DNA from: an uncultured Acidobacteriota bacterium
GTDB taxonomy: Bacteria > Acidobacteriota > Terriglobia > UBA7540
Direction of reading: 5' to 3'
Length of the DNA stretch: 64,000 nucleotides
Assembly (NCBI GenBank): GCA_963804995.1
Contig: CAWDSK010000006.1
Location: forward strand, 736,001-800,000
The notes under the pieces are model-generated. The model had not been told where the DNA came from, ran no database searches, and was given only the letters and a program-made list of their open reading frames with translations. Positions 26,374-43,052 of this stretch are shown one piece after another. A program made the position numbers and the translations under genes. The stretch's first letter is position 1, and each line of letters begins with the position of its first letter.

Positions 26374-26449
26374 GCCGCGGTAGCTCAGGTGGTAGAGCGC
26401 AGCCCTGAAAAGGCTGGCGTCGGCGGTTCAACTCCGTCCCGCGGCACCA
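26374..26449 (+). tRNA. tRNA-Phe (GAA)
   Basis: 76 nt cloverleaf: acceptor gccgcgg/ccgcggc, anticodon arm cagcc-ctGAAaa-ggctg, GGTTCAA T-loop, encoded CCA. Confidence 0.97.
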
Positions 26450-26506
26450 TATTTTCAAACACTTAGCAAGGCTCCACTTCCCATTTTGCTTCCAATTGCT
26501 TCCAAT

Positions 26507-27685
26507 TCAGTTCACCCTTTGCCCGATCTGACGTGTCTCACCTAGCTTTTCTACGACTCGCTTCTGCGACTCGGGAACGAACTGCTGGTAAATATCCAGT
26601 GTCGTGCTTGCCCGGGAGTGCCGCATCTGCGCCTGCGCGTCCTTCACGTCGGCTCCCGCTAACTTGAGCCAAGTCGCGTGGGAGGTTCGCAGACAGCGCC
26701 AGTTTACCCAAGGCAAACCCAGACTACGGGCAGCAGGCTTGAGGAACCGGCTCAGGATGTTGTTATCACGAATGGGCTTGCCATCCTTGACCGATTGAAA
26801 CAGTAAATCATCCGGGCCAGAAGATTTCACGACCCGGTATTTCCGTACCGCACGGCCTGCCCTCACCTCAACGGTCAGCAACTTGAGGCGGTGAATTCGC
26901 TCGATAACGCAACCTTTGACTCCGATCGTGGCATTGGAGGCTTCACTCTTCGGCGCCCCCCAATCACCACGGCAGTACCTTTCGTCAACGGTAATCGAAT
27001 CGGGGTGAACGTCGTTCCACCGCAGCCCCGCCAATTCACTCACCCGAAGCCCTGTGTAGATGGCAACAAAGACGATCGTCGCGTAAGGTTCCGGTATTTT
27101 CGCCAGCAGCGCTTCGAACTGCTCGAACGTGACCACCGGTTTCGAGTGGCGCTTGCCCCGCCGCTCGGGCGGCAGGCGTACACCCTCCACCGGGTTCTTA
27201 ACCAGTAATCCATACTGAACGGCTGAACCGAGAATGCTGGAGAGCACATCCCGGATTTTATCCTTCGACTCGTGGGACAACGATGAAGCCGCCAGGTTCG
27301 AGATATAGCGCTGGATGTTTAAGGTTGTGAGGTCCCGCAAACAGAGATCGCCGAATGCGGGTAGAAGATAGTTCCCGATGACGCCCTGATAGCGGTCCTG
27401 CGTGCTCTTGGCCATCAACGGCATCACCACCGGGATGTAGGTCTCGTCCACGTACATGGTGAAGTTCGTAGCCGAGCCAATGCTTTCAAGGCCCTGGTTG
27501 AGCGGCCGAAGCAGTTCGGCCGCAATTTTCTTGATTTCTCGTTCTCGCATGGATGATGCTGCCAGCTTTGCCCAAACCTTTTTGCGCTTGGGACTGCCAC
27601 CGCTGAGATCATCCCGCCAGTACTGAAGATACCACCACGCCCCGCGCCTGAAAGGCTTGGGGTTCTGAAATCTCCGGCGTGCCAT
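26507..27685 (-). CDS. Tyrosine recombinase / phage-type integrase
   Basis: TGLRVSELAGLRW, PKS, LRTSHATW, RHS...TLDIY; N-terminal arm-binding-like segment. Confidence 0.93.
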   Translation of the reverse strand: MARRRFQNPKPFRRGAWWYLQYWRDDLSGGSPKRKKVWAKLAASSMREREIKKIAAELLRPLNQGLESIGSATNFTMYVDETYIPVVMPLMAKSTQDRYQGVIGNYLLPAFGDLCLRDLTTLNIQRYISNLAASSLSHESKDKIRDVLSSILGSAVQYGLLVKNPVEGVRLPPERRGKRHSKPVVTFEQFEALLAKIPEPYATIVFVAIYTGLRVSELAGLRWNDVHPDSITVDERYCRGDWGAPKSEASNATIGVKGCVIERIHRLKLLTVEVRAGRAVRKYRVVKSSGPDDLLFQSVKDGKPIRDNNILSRFLKPAARSLGLPWVNWRCLRTSHATWLKLAGADVKDAQAQMRHSRASTTLDIYQQFVPESQKRVVEKLGETRQIGQRVN

Positions 27686-28625
27686 CCGCTCAAAGTCTCC
27701 TCTCAGCGGGACGCCGGTGTTTGCCTCGGATGGAACGATATCACACTCCTGTGGTTCGTCAAAACTCTGGCCGACTGCAAAATCAATAACATAGCTGCCG
27801 CCCTCCCGCCACGGTTCTGCTATAACTCCTGGCCATGTTTCGATTCATTGTCCTGTCCCTCGGAACGCTGGCTCGCCTCTTGCGGGCGCGTCGGAGCCTC
27901 CTCCTCGAGAATCTCGCGCTACGCCAACAACTCGCCGTGCTGAAGCCTCGGCATCCGAGGCCCAGAATAGGCCCGCTCGACAAGCTCTTCTGGGTCGCCG
28001 TCCGTTGGTTCTGGTCAGGATGGAAACAATCGCTGATCGTGGTTACACCTGAGACTGTAGTCCGGTGGCACCGAGCCGGTTTCCGCTTGTACTGGCGGGT
28101 GATCTCCAGGGTCAGGACGCAGATGGGGAGAAGACAGACGTCGCAGGAAGTTCGGGAATTGATCTTCCGGATGGTTGCTGAGAATCCGACTTGGGGAGCA
28201 CCGCGGATACATGGCGAACTCCTCATGCTCGGTTTTGATCTCTCCGAGAGAACGATCTCACGCTGGATGAAACGAGCTCCGAGGGATCCCGAACCAGTCA
28301 AGCGTTGGCTTGCCTTTCTTCGAAATCACAGGGAAGCCATCGTTGCGATGGATTTCTTCGCGGCCCCGACGATCACCTTCGGCATACTCTATGGCTTTTT
28401 CGTAATCAGCCATGACCGCCGGCGGATCCTGCACTTCAACGTCACGAAGCACCCGACGAGCAATTGGATCATCCAGCAGCTACGGGAAGCATTTCCCTTC
28501 GAGTCGGCGTCCAGATTTCTAATCTTCGACCGGGATGCGAAATACGGGTTGGAGGTCCCCGTGGCCGTTCGATCCCTGAAGATGAGCCCGGTGCGGACCT
28601 CCTTCGAGAGTCCCTGGCAAAAGGC

Positions 28626-30720
28626 TTATGCTTCATACTGCACCTCATTGGTATGATTCGAGGGGTCCTCGAAGAATCGCTGCCTGGCAGCGAGCTTCGT
28701 CCCTTGCATCTTGCGCGGCGGATCATCGCCGGGGTGTTCATATAAACACTCGTTTTTCTCGTTGTAGGCTTGAGCTCTTAACAGACCATGGTCCCGCCAG
28801 ACTTTCACCCACCCGGTGGAGATGCCGAGCAGCTTAGCCATCTCTTGCAGGGTCAACAGGCCGGCTCCGCGTAGGCGAGTGTAACCGCTCTTCAAGGCAT
28901 AGTTACGCCGTATGCGCGCGACGATGTGAGGGCTGAAGGGCCTGCCTTCGCCCGAGAGCCAGCCGCGTTCATTCAGCAGGCTAGCGATCTGCCGATCGGT
29001 ACGTTGATCCAGGAGCCGGTCGATCTCCGCCACCACCTCCGGCTTGGTGGTGCGCTGTTTCCAGGCATTGAGGGGGATGGGCAAATGCAGGGTCTTTGTA
29101 GCTCCCCCCTTGAAGCGGATCTGAAGCGTGATCTCATGGTTGCGGGTCAACGTAACGTCTTCCAATAGAAGGCGGACCATACGCTTCCGTTCTCGATGTG
29201 GCGTTTTCGCATCGCGCCACAGCCGAGGGAAGTCTGTGGCCAGGGCAAAAATCTGAGCGCGTTCCTCTTCCCGACACAACCCACGGTCGACCTGACGTTG
29301 ACGTTGATACTCTTGCTGAGCCTCTCCCAGAGCACGCAGCTTGTGGTTCCAGTCGGCCTCGAGCGAATCCGCCACGAGCCGGTTGTCGGGATCGCAACGC
29401 AAGTAGCGCCGCTCGGCCAGCTCCGCCTCATACCGGGCGCGCTCGACTTGGGTTTGGCGCAACCGATCCGCTTCTTCCCAACGAGACTGAAGTTCTTGCT
29501 GCACGCTCAGCGCCACCTCCAGGGCTAACGGAGTGACCACTTCGATCAGCAGTTCCCCGATGGCCTGGTCGATACCCGCTCCAGGAACCGTCTGGCAGAT
29601 GGTTTGAGCGTGTTCGATACCGTACCGCTGACACACATAATGGGGGGCCAGGCGTGACCGGTGAACATGATAACGCACGGTCATCCGATTCCCACAGCGG
29701 CCACAGATCACTAATCCCTGCAGAAGCGCTGGACCTTCCCGCGGAGGGCTTTGACGACGGTCGGGACCCCAAGCTTGCGCGGATTCCCGTAACCGCCGCT
29801 GATTGCTCTCATATTCTTCCCAGGAGAGGTAACCCGCATGGGCCCCAGGAAGGCAAGTGTCCCACTCCTCGCGAGGCAACCACTTCACCGTCACGCCACC
29901 CTCCAGCTTCTTGCGCGTCTGACTCCGGCCAAAGACGTAGGCCCCGGCATACCGAGGATTGTGCAAAACGCGCAGGACATGGCTGTGAACAAGTTCCACC
30001 CATACCAACTCTCCTTGGTGGGGCCCCGCCCGCAGGCGGCGGGGAAACAGCAGCCCCTGCTGGCGAAAGGCCTTCACCGTGGCCAGGGCGGATCCCGTAC
30101 GACGGAAGGTTTCAAACAAGAGTCGAAGGCCCTGTTGCACCTGCTGGTCCGGATCGAGAACGAGTTGCCCCGAGCCGTTATAGACCAAGCCGACCGGAGG
30201 TGGGATCTCCAACTCACCGCGCCGAGCTTTGCTGAGGATTCCGCCTCGCAACCGGGCTCGCAGCACGTGCAGTTCCGCCTCGCTCATCGTGCCTTTCAGC
30301 CCCAACAGCAGGCGGTCATTAAAGTGCGCCGGGTCGTAGATGCCATCTTCATCCAAAATGAGCGTGTCGGTGAGCGCGCAGATCTCCAGCAGTCGATGCC
30401 AGTCCGTGGAGTTGCGCGCCAGGCGCGACACCTTGAGAACCCAGAACGATCCCTGCTCGCCCCATCCCCACTTCACTCACCAACCTTTGAAATCCCTCTC
30501 GGTCTACCGCCGAAGCTCCCGACTGGCCTTGATCGTTGTCGATCACGATGATCCGTTCCAAAGGCCAGCCCAGGGCCACGGCCTGTTGGCGTAACGCGTA
30601 CTGGCGCTGGGTGCTCTCGGTATTCTCAAAGACCTGCCGAAGCGTGGACTGCCGGATATACAGGTAGGCGTCGCGTTTCAAATGGTGGGCTTGAACCTTC
30701 TGCGGCATTTCGGTTCTCAT
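28626..30720 (-). CDS. Large serine recombinase (resolvase + recombinase + Zn ribbon); apparent frameshift near 30440
   Basis: AYLYIRQST catalytic Ser motif, DQGQSGAS, VSRLARN, LHNPRYAG, CGRCG...YVC. Confidence 0.9.
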
Positions 30721-31022
30721 CCTCTCACCTCCGGCCGACTGTGAAGTACCATGCTCGCCAGAATCGTAACCACTTCCGTGTGCAGATCGAGAGGAACCCT
30801 CTCCTCAGGGCCGGACGGATTCTGGGGTTTCATCGGAATCCCACCCGGCAGGCAGTGGGACCAGGCTTCCATCCAGCCTTTCATCCCCTGGCGAATAAAC
30901 AGCGCCAGGCCCAAGGCTCCGCGCCTGCCGCCTAACTCACCCCGCACTTGTCGCCGGAGTTCCTCATATTGGTTTACGATCCCCTCCTGGGCCATCAGGG
31001 GAGCAACGGGAGGGTCGCTCAA
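30717..31022 (-). CDS. Small accessory protein of the recombinase element (101 aa)
   Basis: TTG start overlaps the upstream TGA; its stop overlaps the recombinase ATG; YEELRRQV...GLALFIRQGMKGWM. Confidence 0.65.
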   Translation of the reverse strand: MSDPPVAPLMAQEGIVNQYEELRRQVRGELGGRRGALGLALFIRQGMKGWMEAWSHCLPGGIPMKPQNPSGPEERVPLDLHTEVVTILASMVLHSRPEVRG

Positions 31023-31486
31023 CGTCGTTTTTTTTGCTGCTGCCGAAGCCGGCGCTCCAAGCTGCGAGGATGGACCCGTAGACGGAAGGCTTTCTTCACC
31101 CGGGCCGCCAGTTCCTCGCTCCGCAAGGAGGGTTCGGCAGCTCGGGCCTGCCGGACGAACTCCATTACCTCGGCCGTGAGCTTGTGGGCGTGCCGAGGTC
31201 CCCGTTTCTGGGGAATCAATCCTGCGAGTCCCCTGGCTACGAAGCCCGCCTGGGCGAGGTAGAAGGAGGGTCTGGAGAAACCAAAAGCCTCCGCCGCTTG
31301 GCTCACCGCTTGGTTTTCGACCCTCACTTGGCGCAGCATCTCGTACTTGACCTGCAGCAAGTCCCGGGGATCGAAGAAGTCGCTGTCCTGGAACAGGGCG
31401 TGGGCCACCTCCTGCGGGCGGGGATTCAAGGTACCTTGGGAGCGCAGGATATGGCGCTTGGCATCGTGGCGTGAGGAAGGGGACAT
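31019..31486 (-). CDS. Helix-turn-helix protein of the recombinase element
   Basis: FFDPRDLLQVKYEMLR...AAEAFGFSRPSFY HTH...GLIPQKRGP. Confidence 0.8.
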   Translation of the reverse strand: MSPSSRHDAKRHILRSQGTLNPRPQEVAHALFQDSDFFDPRDLLQVKYEMLRQVRVENQAVSQAAEAFGFSRPSFYLAQAGFVARGLAGLIPQKRGPRHAHKLTAEVMEFVRQARAAEPSLRSEELAARVKKAFRLRVHPRSLERRLRQQQKKRR

Positions 31487-31527
31487 GGGCTCCTCCGGAG
31501 CAAATCCGGCAAACGAGTGTAATGTTA

Positions 31528-31556
31528 ATTATATACATTCTCTTGCTCCCTGTCAA
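31528..31556 (-). promoter_or_regulatory. Perfect consensus sigma70 promoter
   Basis: TTGACA-17 bp-TATAAT on the minus strand, upstream of the HTH gene. Confidence 0.85.
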
Positions 31557-31706
31557 GCCTTTTCTATCCTCCGACCCGAATTTGTGTTGCACAATAAGCG
31601 GATATTGCACTCACACACCCACCGAAAACTCTGGACTTCGGCTCAAGCTCCGACATAATCCCTTTAACACAAACGGCGTAATTCCCTTTACAGACCTTCC
31701 GGGGCT

Positions 31707-31991
31707 TCAGGACCGTAAACCCTCCACCAAACGCACCAATTCAATCAGGTCCTCAACGCGAAAATACGAGCGGCCTCCCCCTATGACCACGAATGGGTCC
31801 TCCCCCACGACACTCGTCCACCGCGCCGGTAGCGAGGTCAACTGGCCTCCTTCGTCGTAGAAATACACTCGGTCCTCCCCCCAGTTCTGGCGGTAGTCCA
31901 CCCATTCGAATTCACGTTGGAACAGTGGATGGTAAGGGTGAGTTACTCGGAAACGTCGTTTTGAATAGTCTCTATGGTGTGTAGTTGACAA
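31707..31991 (-). CDS. DUF5372 (Y4bD/Y4pK-like) protein
   Basis: VTHPYHPL...RQNWGEDRV...LPARWT...DPF; TTG start 8 bp inside the element end. Confidence 0.7.
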   Translation of the reverse strand: MSTTHHRDYSKRRFRVTHPYHPLFQREFEWVDYRQNWGEDRVYFYDEGGQLTSLPARWTSVVGEDPFVVIGGGRSYFRVEDLIELVRLVEGLRS

Positions 31992-32680
31992 CCTGATCCA
32001 ACGGTGTGGCGGAGCGTTGGGTCGAAAGTTGCCGACGAGACTTACTGGATCATGTTATCGCGGTGAATGAACGCCATCTGAAACGGCTGCTCTCTGAATA
32101 CGTCCGCTACTACCACGAGGATCGCACGCATCTTGGACTCGGGAAGGGAACTCCGAACTGTAGAACTTGTTCCAGAGCCTCAGGTCGCGTCCTGTCTCAG
32201 GAGCGACTCGGCGGGTTGCATCATCGTTACGATCGGGCTGCCTGACCCGGACCAATTTTTCACCTGTCCCAAATAGTATACACACGCCGCATGCGCGCGC
32301 ACACTAGTTCCCACCCCGAGAGAACTTCGCGCACCTCCAAGCAAACCCTGGCCGAATTCAGGCTCTCTTTCAAGCTGAGCCGAGGACGAATCGCGCCAAG
32401 TTTCGTCGTGGATGAGATTTTGGCGAACAACACCCTCTCGCCGTCCTCATGTTTCTGTGGGTAAGACCGGGATCCCGGTTAAACTCGGGCTATTAAAGGA
32501 CCACAACCAGGATTTATCCATACAGGCCGCTCGGACCGACAAAGAGAAAGGCTGGGGGGTGCGTTGCGGGTTCGCCGAGCGGATTGAATCATGGCGACAG
32601 ACACGCTTCGATTCCAGCGACAAAAGGGCCTAAGAGTTTGGCACTGTCCAAACCTCTTCGAGTTCAGGTGGACTTCAAGG

Positions 32681-37924: not shown

Positions 37925-39270
37925 TGTCCACTCGAAAAACCTTAAAGCCACAGATTCCTTGATGAGCGTTGCGGTACTGCAACGGTGGATGAACAAGAAT
38001 CTCTCACATGCACTGTCCTTCGGTAGTGACTCTCGTCTTCGCAGCGTTATTGTGATTGTGCGATCCCTAAGAAGATTATGCTGCCACCCGGATGTAACGG
38101 TGATGCAGGCCGCCTACAACTGGAACGGAAACAAGCCTGCTCGGCTCTGTGACGGGCTCAGGCTCATTGGTGCGAAAGGGCGTCTCGCCGTCCAAACCAT
38201 AATGCGGCCTGGCGATGTGATAATACTCTTTGATGTATTCCCTCAGCAGTCGTTTTAGGTGTTCTTCACTGAGAATCATGACGTGATCCAACAGCTCCCG
38301 CCGCAGGGTGCCGCCATACCTTTCGACGAATGGATTTTGCCAGGGACAGCGAAAGGCAGTTCTAACTTCTTCGATGCCCGTTCCCTTTAGGAATCGACCC
38401 ACCTCATCTCCATAAACTGCGTCATTATCCCGGAATAGGTAAGTGGGCTGGATGCCAAAGGGCATCGCCTCGCGCAGCTGCTGGATCACCCAAGCCATCG
38501 TGGGACGAGCCGTCACAGCTACGTGTACCACCTGACGACGGGCATGATTGAGGATCACGAAGACATAAAGGATTTGGAATCGAATGGTGGGCACAGTGAA
38601 AAAGTCCATTCCCCAGCTGACGTCCGTATGATTGCGCAGGAAGGTCAGCCAGTTCTGGGACTTCTCCATCCCTCCTTTAGGCTTGACCATGTACTTGCGA
38701 ATCGTATCCGGGCAGGGAGGATCGAAACCGAGAAGCAGCAAATGCCCATGAATCCTTTCGGCACTCCACAGCACGTTTTCGCCACTGAGTTGTCGGATCA
38801 GAACGCGCATTTCCTGGCTGATTAGGGGGCGCCCTCCCACGCCCCGCGATTTCCAGCGCCACCACAGGCGAAAACCTCTCGTATGCCATTTGAGAACAGT
38901 CTTTGGCTGCATCAAGTCTGCGACAGGTTTCCACCCCCTCCAAACCACGGACAACAGCACCCACAGCAGACGAAAAGCCGGGGTGAACCGGGGTCGGGTC
39001 TGTTTCTTTTGCCGGATACTTTCTTTGTAAAAGCTGAGCTGACTTCGAATGGCCACCAACTCACATCCCAGTGAGGCGCGGCTGCGGAAGAAGGCCGAGA
39101 CAAAGATCAGTGCATAATGGATGACCTCTTGCCCGAATCGCAGAAACGAGAGGGGCTGCCGACAGAGATTCTGGATTGTTTTCATGCTCAAAGATGGTAA
39201 TCGTTAGGCAGGCTTTGCAACCTTTCTAATTCCTTGGACCTAAAGGGATATGAAGTATTTCGGGTAGACA
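37925..39270 (-). mobile_element. TGT...ACA-ended DDE IS, apparently intact
   Basis: TIRs tgtccactcgaaaaac / gtatttcgggtagaca. Confidence 0.85.
38076..39191 (-). CDS. Integrase-core transposase
   Basis: WSAERIHG, MDFFTVPT, RDNDAVY, PWQNPFVER, GGLHHRY. Confidence 0.9.
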   Translation of the reverse strand: MSMKTIQNLCRQPLSFLRFGQEVIHYALIFVSAFFRSRASLGCELVAIRSQLSFYKESIRQKKQTRPRFTPAFRLLWVLLSVVWRGWKPVADLMQPKTVLKWHTRGFRLWWRWKSRGVGGRPLISQEMRVLIRQLSGENVLWSAERIHGHLLLLGFDPPCPDTIRKYMVKPKGGMEKSQNWLTFLRNHTDVSWGMDFFTVPTIRFQILYVFVILNHARRQVVHVAVTARPTMAWVIQQLREAMPFGIQPTYLFRDNDAVYGDEVGRFLKGTGIEEVRTAFRCPWQNPFVERYGGTLRRELLDHVMILSEEHLKRLLREYIKEYYHIARPHYGLDGETPFRTNEPEPVTEPSRLVSVPVVGGLHHRYIRVAA

Positions 39271-41738: not shown

Positions 41739-43052
41739 TGTCCCTGCCAAAAACTCGATCGACCGCAAAGAGCGGCTAATTCGCAGCGTGTCAAAGGGTC
41801 GAGGGAGTTGCTGGGCGGACGCGGCCTCCAGATTTCATGGCGGTGCGAGTGCGGGGAAGGTTCTGTTCCCAGCGGGAGGGAGGCTTCACCGGTCTCGGCC
41901 GACTCCAGTGGGAACACACCCCTCTTGAGTCTGTGAACAATTCTTCAAGCCGCCCGCCGTTCGTAGCGGTGATGCAGTCCACCCACTTCCCGCAGTTCAA
42001 CGACGGACCCCAGCTCCGGCGGTTGAACCGGTCTGCTCTCCGGTGCATCTTTATCCAACGACAAGTGAGTGCGGGCCCGGTGGTAGTAAGCGAAATACAA
42101 CTTGAGCCTCTGGCGCAGAGACTCCTCGTTGAGTACGATGAGGTGATCCAGGCACTCCCGTCGAACGGATCCGATCAGGCGCTCCACATAGGGACTCTGC
42201 CATGGCGACCTCGGGGCCGTCATGACTTCGCGAATCGCCATCCCTCGGACTCTTTGCCGGAAGACGTCGCCATGGATGCTATCGCGATCACGGAGCAGAT
42301 AGCGTGGGGCCGTATCCCAAGGGAAGGCCTCGACAACCTGTTGCGCCGTCCATTCCGAGGTGGGATGGGCAGTAACGTTGAAATGAATCACGCGGCGCCG
42401 CTGATGGGCCAAGACCACAAAGACAAAGAGGATTCGAAAGTTCACCGTCGGCACGACGAAGAAATCCGTGGAGACCAATTGCTTCAGGTGAATATCGAGG
42501 AACGTACGCCACGTCTGGGAGGGTGGTCTTCGGTGACGCTCCATGTACTTGGCAGCGGTGGCTTGAGATAATTCAATTCCGAGCTTCAGGAGCTCGCCAT
42601 GGATGCTTGGTGCTCCCCAGCGCGGATTCGCCAGGCTCATCTTCCGGATGAGGTCCCGAACCTCACGAGACACTTCAGGCCTTCCCGGCCTACCCGGTCT
42701 ACTCTTCCATGTCCAATACAGGCGGAATCCCCGGCGATGCCAGGCAATAACCGTTTCCGGCTTGACGATGATGAGCGCAGAACGCCAGCCGGGCCAGAGG
42801 TACAGCAGCCATGTCCACAAGAGGCGGTCCACCTCCGTGAGTCGAACGCGCCCACGCTGCGACCTTCGGAGCACGTTTATCTGGTGGCGGAGGGGCAAGA
42901 ATCTCCAACTGCAAGGCCGCCCGGGTTTGGAAGCAGGAGCGGAGAGTGCCCAGGAAGGAAAAGAATAGGGTAAACATGGGAGCGGGAAGCTTAGCAGTGG
43001 GAGCCAACCAACATCAATGATTTCAATCCGGACGGAGTTTTTGGCAGGTACA
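41739..43052 (-). mobile_element. TGT...ACA-ended DDE IS
   Basis: TIRs tgtccctgccaaaaactc / gagtttttggcaggtaca. Confidence 0.88.
41945..42977 (-). CDS. Integrase-core transposase; frameshift near 42895
   Basis: MFTLFFSF...LEILA / LRHQINVL, WGAPSIHGEL, DFFVVPT, SPWQSPYVER, GGLHHRY. Confidence 0.85.

Follow-up and report, generated by a model that had tools for sequence, protein, structure and literature searches.

A serine recombinase element found at one conserved codon of transposase genes from several insertion sequence families

Known systems and the acidobacterial element

The nearest described relative of the element analysed here is a repeat of plasmid pNGR234a from Sinorhizobium fredii NGR234 (NC_000914.2:33989-37258; 3,320 bp), which carries a DUF5372 gene, a helix-turn-helix (HTH) gene, a small open reading frame (ORF) and a recombinase gene in this order. 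The same four-gene arrangement was found at positions 28623-32001 of a 64,000-nucleotide stretch, hereafter “the window”, from an uncultured Acidobacteriota bacterium of the UBA7540 lineage (GCA_963804995.1, contig CAWDSK010000006.1, positions 736,001 to 800,000 of the forward strand), where it interrupts the DDE transposase gene of an insertion sequence (IS). The two recombinases are 54.6% identical, the ends and the AA/TT core are the same, and the pNGR234a unit occupies the same codon of IS1202-like and IS21-like transposase genes. Judged by these sequence features, the acidobacterial element belongs to the family of the pNGR234a repeat and is not a different system. In public annotation, the pNGR234a unit is described gene by gene only; we take it to be the one named y4bA-D and NGRIS-4 within NGRRS-1 (presumably as defined in Perret 1997). 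The original prediction, made from the window alone, spoke of a possibly new integrase tool. The element type proved to be publicly annotated already, and what stands of this claim would be a multi-site integrase aimed at dispensable IS genes.

The phage serine integrases (Bxb1, phiC31, SPbeta, and LI) share with the recombinase of the element its domain set, fold, 2-bp crossover without duplication and symmetric attP with inner and outer motifs (PMC3783163; here and below, comparisons with PMC- and bioRxiv-numbered papers extend to excerpts of these sources). Unlike them, the element has no phage genes, uses many degenerate targets and encodes about 125 extra C-terminal residues; its outer motif was not clearly found 5 bp inward in attB, and no directionality factor is known for it. 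By analogy, its mode of action would be that of a phage serine integrase acting as a transposase. The multi-targeting large serine recombinases (LSRs) of the TndX/TnpX type likewise serve as transposases at many related sites with a TT/AA core (Durrant et al., PMC10083194). In contrast to these enzymes, the targets of the element converge on one codon of other transposases, and its recombinase lacks DUF4368 (no such Pfam match at E up to 1), which is present in 63% of the multi-targeting clade of Durrant et al. (PMC10083194). These authors report that transposases are not enriched among site-specific targets (6/1069 vs 2/908, false discovery rate 0.37), and a transposase-target class was not found in the excerpts of their text and supplementary files (PMC10083194).

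The group II intron RmInt1, which resides in the transposase gene of ISRm2011-2 and blocks its expression, is the ecological precedent; RmInt1 relies on RNA-guided retrohoming to one IS (PMC4238363), whereas the element considered here would use DNA recombination into at least five transposase types. The IS1202 subgroup at xrs sites also targets a feature that is conserved in mobile DNA of other kinds, but it uses DDE chemistry and a target beside XerCD sites (bioRxiv 10.1101/2022.12.17.520857), and IS1202-like genes are themselves among the victims of our element. The nesting of mobile elements is treated only in general terms in the excerpts of PMC8989519 and PMC5994717. A description of the target rule reported below (an Asn/Lys codon before the catalytic Glu) was not found in the literature searched, the coverage of which was partial and did not include most subscription journals. 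The new contributions of this analysis are a test of DNA readout based on attP, a measurement of the specificity gap and the hybrid transposase.

Three other types of mobile DNA do not match the element. The IS607 family possesses a small serine recombinase with an N-terminal HTH, usually accompanied by TnpB, whereas here the enzyme comprises 697 amino acids (aa) with the catalytic domain first, and no TnpB occurs among the ORFs of the element. Classical DDE ISs are characterised by a DDE transposase, terminal inverted repeats and target duplication; the element has no DDE domain and duplicates nothing beyond AA. The IS110 “bridge-RNA” elements combine a DEDD recombinase with a guide RNA that is produced at the junction of the circle. 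No DEDD domain was detected here, and the Rfam scan gave no match near threshold and one chance-level match in the host gene, although an RNA of unknown type may be present; no RNA source was present among the listed holders of the element.

Boundaries, target codon and copies

Removal of the element (3,379 bp) fuses the transposase halves into a single 343-aa frame through PWQNGVAERW. When the cut was slid base by base, AA proved to be the sole sequence shared by the junctions: the cut can move 1-2 bases leftward, one further base either way loses the match, and there is no longer duplication. In place, the 5' frame of the transposase reads into the element and stops at 28656, ahead of the catalytic Glu. 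The ends of the element, which represent the predicted attP arms, match each other as 21-bp inverted repeats at 12/21 positions (p about 0.002 in a binomial test with a chance rate of 26%). Symmetry at the same positions is shared by 39 distinct relatives (mean 10.5/21), with positions 1, 2, 5, 8, 15-17, 19, 21, and 22 conserved. The original prediction, which had read the restored PWQNGVA frame, the lone AA and the 12 alike positions from the window, was correct in all three respects. Flanking direct repeats of the host IS were seen neither at window positions 27750 and 32432 nor in the shown flanks of the sister ISs.

In at least five types of transposase (IS3, IS481, IS21, IS1202-like, and rve_3-type), the target is the Asn/Lys codon that precedes the catalytic Glu by four residues, both Asn and Lys codons being used. 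In the GTDB genomes, where the results come from the best 80 of 512 candidate stretches, right ends were located in 73, an upstream frame of at least 20 aa was open in 63, and 52 flanks were scanned, 11 same-genome repeats being left out. IS models were matched by 40 of these flanks, one represents a GGDEF gene, and 11 have no match; of the latter, four match the window transposase by tblastn, four are transposase-like by eye, and three are left over. Full IS-model matches end at one homologous column (IS3 313, IS481 227-228, IS21 224-225, ISNCY_2 235). An independent metagenome set, composed of 80 end-motif matches listed among at least 120, provided 73 informative flanks after seven that were too short had been dropped. 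These flanks were picked by the end motif only and scored with profiles built from the GTDB set: 62/73 stop at the target column by profile (rve_3 type 23, IS3 18, IS1202-like 17, IS21 4), nine more do so by eye, two are unplaced, and a reverse-strand control gave no match. In IS21, the flank profile aligns to IstA through Gln227 with one position left over, which places the junction at codon 229; the catalytic residue of IstA is Glu233, four positions further on (PMC10122671, excerpts). Single-sequence PDB searches with transposase pieces found nothing, whereas the profile search did match.

Identical or nearly identical elements occur in differing families (no differences between L033 and L034, one between L063 and L065), and of two 100% identical NGR234 copies one lies in an IS21-like gene and the other in an IS1202-like gene. 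A quick tree was built from the 37 labelled sequences among the 43 aligned recombinases (the six unlabelled ones were left out). On it, the target label changes 12 times; the possible minimum is four, and shuffled labels give 18.2 changes, so that the target family is still clustered. Among the complete plasmid records (n = 5), 12 of the 13 closest copies have a resolved downstream flank, which reads by eye as a transposase in all of them; one copy lies two codons off, and the upstream flank of one is unrelated. The expectation that a conserved IS motif serves as attB, and that homologues return to PWQN-type codons, therefore stands in part: the site is a conserved transposase motif (in 4/4 own copies) and the same codon is used repeatedly, but PWQNG of one IS family is too narrow a definition, as IS3, IS21, IS1202-like and other genes are involved as well. 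Homologous elements at unrelated sequences were mostly not seen (40/52 GTDB flanks and 62/73 listed metagenome ends lie at the target column).

Some relatives deviate from this pattern. In the flanks of L215, the first Lys codon of an IS21 KAKVE-like motif is joined to the second and two codons are missing, which suggests either a second usable AA or a hybrid. In one Thermoleophilia genome, three copies (L027, L030, and L031) occupy sites not reading as transposases, one of them in a GGDEF gene, and two keep the downstream motif; possibly, they form a relaxed sub-lineage. More distant recombinases (35-40%) on rhizobial plasmids (L223-L239) form multi-copy elements of 2.6-2.7 kb.

The genome of the window (G000) contains four copies of the element, 99.85-99.88% alike, all antisense at PWQ|N and in the same orientation. 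Two copies are hosted by PWQNG genes and two by PWQNP genes, the latter resembling the window host at no more than about 75-82%. The recombinase is intact in three of the four copies, among them the one at C6:882541-885918; the window copy alone is frameshifted by one extra base near 30438. This base is absent from the other three copies and from the contigs of 4/4 public DNA runs, which represent related IS copies at 88% or more identity from another strain than the source. It represents either a private mutation or an assembly error. Since three intact copies exist, the frame correction of the recombinase envisaged in the original prediction is unneeded.

The empty joint 28620->32000, in which two letters fit either side, occurs in the contigs of 2/4 public runs. 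In G000, an empty sister with 41/52 bases alike round the core is located on the same contig (C6 near 364423). Four of the 13 AA-bearing sites are occupied, compared with none of the six non-AA sisters (p 0.26, not significant). The 13-mer of the joined site that had been noticed in a sister transposase (38335-38347, minus) is present, but this gene belongs to another subfamily (PWQNPF), with 28/52 bases alike round the core. We rejected this site as “the” attB: it is a mere motif match, and closer empty sisters lie outside the window. Besides the host gene, the window contains two rve_3-type transposases (38076-39191 and 41945-42898), one with an empty AA site (PWQN), the other with Ser for Asn and hence without the AA core. 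A second element, the recombinase of which is 35% identical, is represented in G000 by three broken or partial copies (C1:123019-125633, C5:1173760-1174996, and C6:840352-841153); it resides in the same type of transposase gene but uses a different conserved site, the YY(H/N) codons, which follow about 35 codons later.

By its domains and crossover, the recombinase is a member of the LSR family. It comprises a catalytic domain with the nucleophile Ser (PF00239, E 1.7e-18 at 18-169; Y21, R23, Q24, and S25 invariant in 43 sequences), a recombinase domain and a zinc ribbon (PF07508 and PF13408 matched; C339, C342, C363, and C375 invariant in the aligned recombinases) with a coiled coil (helices 397-441 and 447-479 in the predicted structure). 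The predicted structure (pLDDT 76, pTM 0.43) fits solved serine integrases to about residue 541, and Foldseek relates it to a serine integrase complex (E 3e-16). The extra C-terminal part of about 125 residues resembles a weak second recombinase-type winged helix followed by a MerR-like HTH. Together with the 2-bp crossover without target duplication, these features agree with those of serine integrases, and the view of a compact four-gene element moved by an LSR has been borne out.

Reading of the target DNA and rival explanations

We suppose that this is probably a 3.3-3.4-kb element which is autonomous and belongs to the pNGR234a four-gene type, and the distribution of which is due to direct readout of a degenerate motif plus selection. 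By excision between the two AA cores, the recombinase would release the element in circular form and restore the host frame, and the joined ends would form attP and complete the DUF5372 gene. The circle would then integrate, always antisense, into genes of RNase H-fold DDE transposases, at the AA that begins the Asn/Lys codon located four positions ahead of the catalytic Glu. Recognition would occur mainly by direct reading of a degenerate motif of first and second codon positions which the transposase cannot change, and selection would remove most insertions into ordinary genes. Each insertion would sever the transposase ahead of its catalytic Glu, and exchange between copies followed by excision would yield in-frame hybrid transposases. 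The boundaries and copy number of the element, its use of one codon in several families, the unoccupied sites and one hybrid were observed directly. Within this scheme, we infer the circle, catalysis, direction control, the roles of the HTH, orf3 and DUF5372 products and the share of selection from sequence.

In established LSR chemistry, the 2-bp core must match. The consensus of the target sites includes CC at -9/-8, AA, G at +2 and +8, and GAR at +11 to +13, GAR being kept in 43-44 of 45 sites. Such a motif might reflect mere protein conservation; this is why the element's own ends were taken as an independent predictor, and a matrix of attP positions 1-9 was tested on 89 left and 45 right target arms. 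The area under the curve (AUC) was 0.77 (left) and 0.80 (right) against genome AA sites, and 0.72 and 0.79 against 586 other Asn/Lys codons of the same flanks. This prediction of target arms by attP arms supports direct DNA readout and agrees with the published model, in which the recombinase domain contacts one inner motif in attP and attB alike (PMC3783163, excerpts). The three non-transposase landings with an unrelated gene on both sides keep G+2 and GAR.

Several observations weigh against this account. The sites of the AUC test are related by kinship, so its p values are overstated; the attP zinc-ribbon motif was not clearly found when it was sought in attB at 5 bp nearer the core, the AUC being 0.61 (left) and 0.44 (right) for the same orientation and 0.76 on the right for the reversed one, as one peak among about 80 comparisons; and the downstream flanks of L005 and L040, with IS3 upstream halves, do not have the motif. 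When the host family was left out, four true sites ranked 329-1273 of 827,142 AA sites; in a looser test they ranked 176-355, and most of the 30 top listed sites were ordinary genes. The joined-end (circle) pattern had no matches in viral or metagenome contigs, which drop rare forms and so provide no evidence of absence, and no going-back joint was present among the joints listed for the public-run contigs. The end motif itself was not found in viral contigs.

Wider matrices (to 36 bp each side) left the cross-family motif still insufficient (ranks 98-1038). The shared motif enriches about a thousandfold, yet hundreds of rival sites remain; the missing specificity must therefore come from selection, from a finer readout or from a cofactor. 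The idea of a directly readable single attP/attB pair was thus overstated: attB is degenerate, hundreds of genome sites score equally, and no circle junction was found.

One can suggest that the motif is only permissive and that a cofactor (the circle-only DUF5372, the HTH/orf3 product or the extra C-terminal domains of the recombinase) steers the element to transposase genes, for instance by binding of the transposase, a transposition intermediate or a longer DNA shape. We hold this unlikely. It would explain why about 85-97% of the informative listed metagenome ends are in transposases (62 strict and 71 by eye, of 73) despite hundreds of equal-scoring sites, and it is consistent with the acquisition of a start by DUF5372 only in the integration substrate (32/39) and with the residues of the recombinase extending past the part alignable to solved integrases. 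However, 3/3 of the non-transposase landings with an unrelated gene on both sides retain the DNA motif, attP arms mirror attB arms, and the target proteins are so diverse (16% mean column identity) that a single protein contact would be hard to achieve; moreover, a position matrix built from few sites underestimates the true specificity.

Quite unlikely, in our opinion, is a survival filter, in which a loose TndX-like recombinase hits many motif sites and IS insertions dominate because they are harmless and copied with the host IS. The motif alone permits hundreds to about a thousand sites, one genome has copies at non-transposase sites (L030, L031, and probably L027), and several copies in near-identical IS3 hosts of one genome (L054-L057, L059-L061) could be hitch-hiking. 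However, the motif matches the codon pattern of the catalytic helix, as the retention of GAR demonstrates, which implies tuning to transposases; insertions should also be tolerated in many spacers and non-essential genes, yet only 2/73 listed metagenome ends are unplaced, and the young near-identical copies of G000 are already only in transposases. A site-specific integrase with the PWQNG stretch of one IS family as attB is highly improbable and largely refuted at the family level by the divergent PWQNP hosts of two own copies, the identical elements in two families and the hybrid at C1:67710 with its upstream half from a different subfamily, although 4/4 own copies and the two nearest tree relatives (L004 and L078) are in PWQN-type genes and this lineage may prefer PWQN.

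Hybrid transposase, accessory genes and implications

Exchange between copies with precise excision is suggested by an element-free, in-frame chimeric transposase gene at G000:C1:67278-68600 (minus), the breakpoint of which is the crossover AA (C1:67710). Its downstream half is identical to window 32000-32432 over the 433 bases from AA to the IS end; the upstream half resembles another subfamily (84.5% identity) far more than the window host (35%). The halves share only AA, and therefore homologous recombination or misassembly alone does not explain the chimera. Most likely, judging from this one case, it arose by exchange between two element copies followed by precise excision. Mixed flanks round still-present elements (L053, L076, L221, and others) agree with exchange, some of them being in draft assemblies.

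All four genes of the element are on the minus strand (Table 1). The ribosome site and start codon of DUF5372 are found at the opposite end of the element, where they overlap the stop codon of the recombinase. By a strict test, the start created by joining the ends is present in 32 of 39 distinct elements; four more start one codon later, and three are broken. Fold searches with DUF5372 gave generic SH3/KOW barrels only (best Z 5.0, root-mean-square deviation 1.8, 45 aligned); Foldseek found nothing at E 0.001, and the Atlas search retrieved its own family only. For orf3, the Atlas search gave no match. In 33/39 relatives, the HTH gene ends in an A-run and orf3 is open in the -1 frame, and the S. 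medicae copy L205 has a natural in-frame HTH-orf3 fusion; -1 frameshifting at the A8 run probably joins HTH to orf3. The strict promoter pattern ahead of the HTH gene is conserved in only 3/39 relatives.

In the window, a tRNA-Phe and then a tyrosine integrase gene (minus) are located at 26374-27685. The host IS lies just upstream of this integrase gene; therefore, the nest is probably in an island edge.

Table 1. Features of the element and of its host IS, in window coordinates
Feature	Position	Strand	Remarks
Host IS left end (TGT..., imperfect inverted repeat)	27750..27772	+	similarity to sister IS copies begins here; no flanking direct repeat seen
Host DDE transposase, 5' part (rve_3 / IS481-IS3-like)	27835..28620	+	ends ...ESPWQ
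Left junction, AA crossover dinucleotide	28621..28622	+	bases 1-2 of the Asn codon
Element end, one predicted attP arm	28623..28644	.	contains recombinase stop codon (28626-28628, minus)
Large serine recombinase gene	28626..30720	-	697 aa in three intact copies; frameshifted near 30438 in window copy
Shine-Dalgarno-like GAGGTG (28641-28646) and ATG (28634-28636)	28634..28646	-	in frame with DUF5372 only once ends are joined
orf3, about 100 aa, no known family	30717..31035	-	stop overlaps recombinase start; in -1 frame of HTH gene
HTH protein, 155 aa	31019..31486	-	HTH_32/29/28, like N-terminus of IS630/IS481 transposases
Eight-A run ending HTH gene	31028..31035	-	probable -1 frameshift site fusing HTH to orf3
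Sigma-70 promoter-like site, perfect consensus (12/12, 17-bp spacer)	31528..31556	-	ahead of HTH gene
DUF5372 frame, open to element end	31707..32000	-	SH3/KOW-like barrel predicted
Element end, other predicted attP arm	31978..31999	.	
Right junction, AA crossover dinucleotide	32000..32001	+	
Host transposase, 3' part (GVAERWVESC...)	32002..32245	+	catalytic Glu codon at 32012-32014
Host IS right end (...ACA)	32410..32432	+	

The presented analysis describes a widespread parasite of other mobile elements, with 512 candidate GTDB stretches and 448 plasmid records, the landing rule of which tracks a protein catalytic motif across IS families with little common DNA sequence. The element allows a direct test of how a serine integrase keeps useful specificity on a degenerate site. 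Its insertion accounts for numerous split “transposase pseudogenes” of soil bacteria and of rhizobial plasmids, and it may influence IS load and the evolution of transposases. As a tool, it represents a multi-site integrase for dispensable IS genes rather than a clean “landing-pad” enzyme.

Possible, though rather unlikely, is a serine recombinase that finds transposase genes as a class by combining the degenerate codon-pattern readout with circle-only DUF5372 or the extra C-terminal domains as a targeting factor. If this were true, the element would reversibly switch off a wide range of ISs (IS3, IS481, IS21 and IS1202-like elements) and would drive the swapping of transposase halves at the catalytic helix, giving rise to new hybrid ISs.

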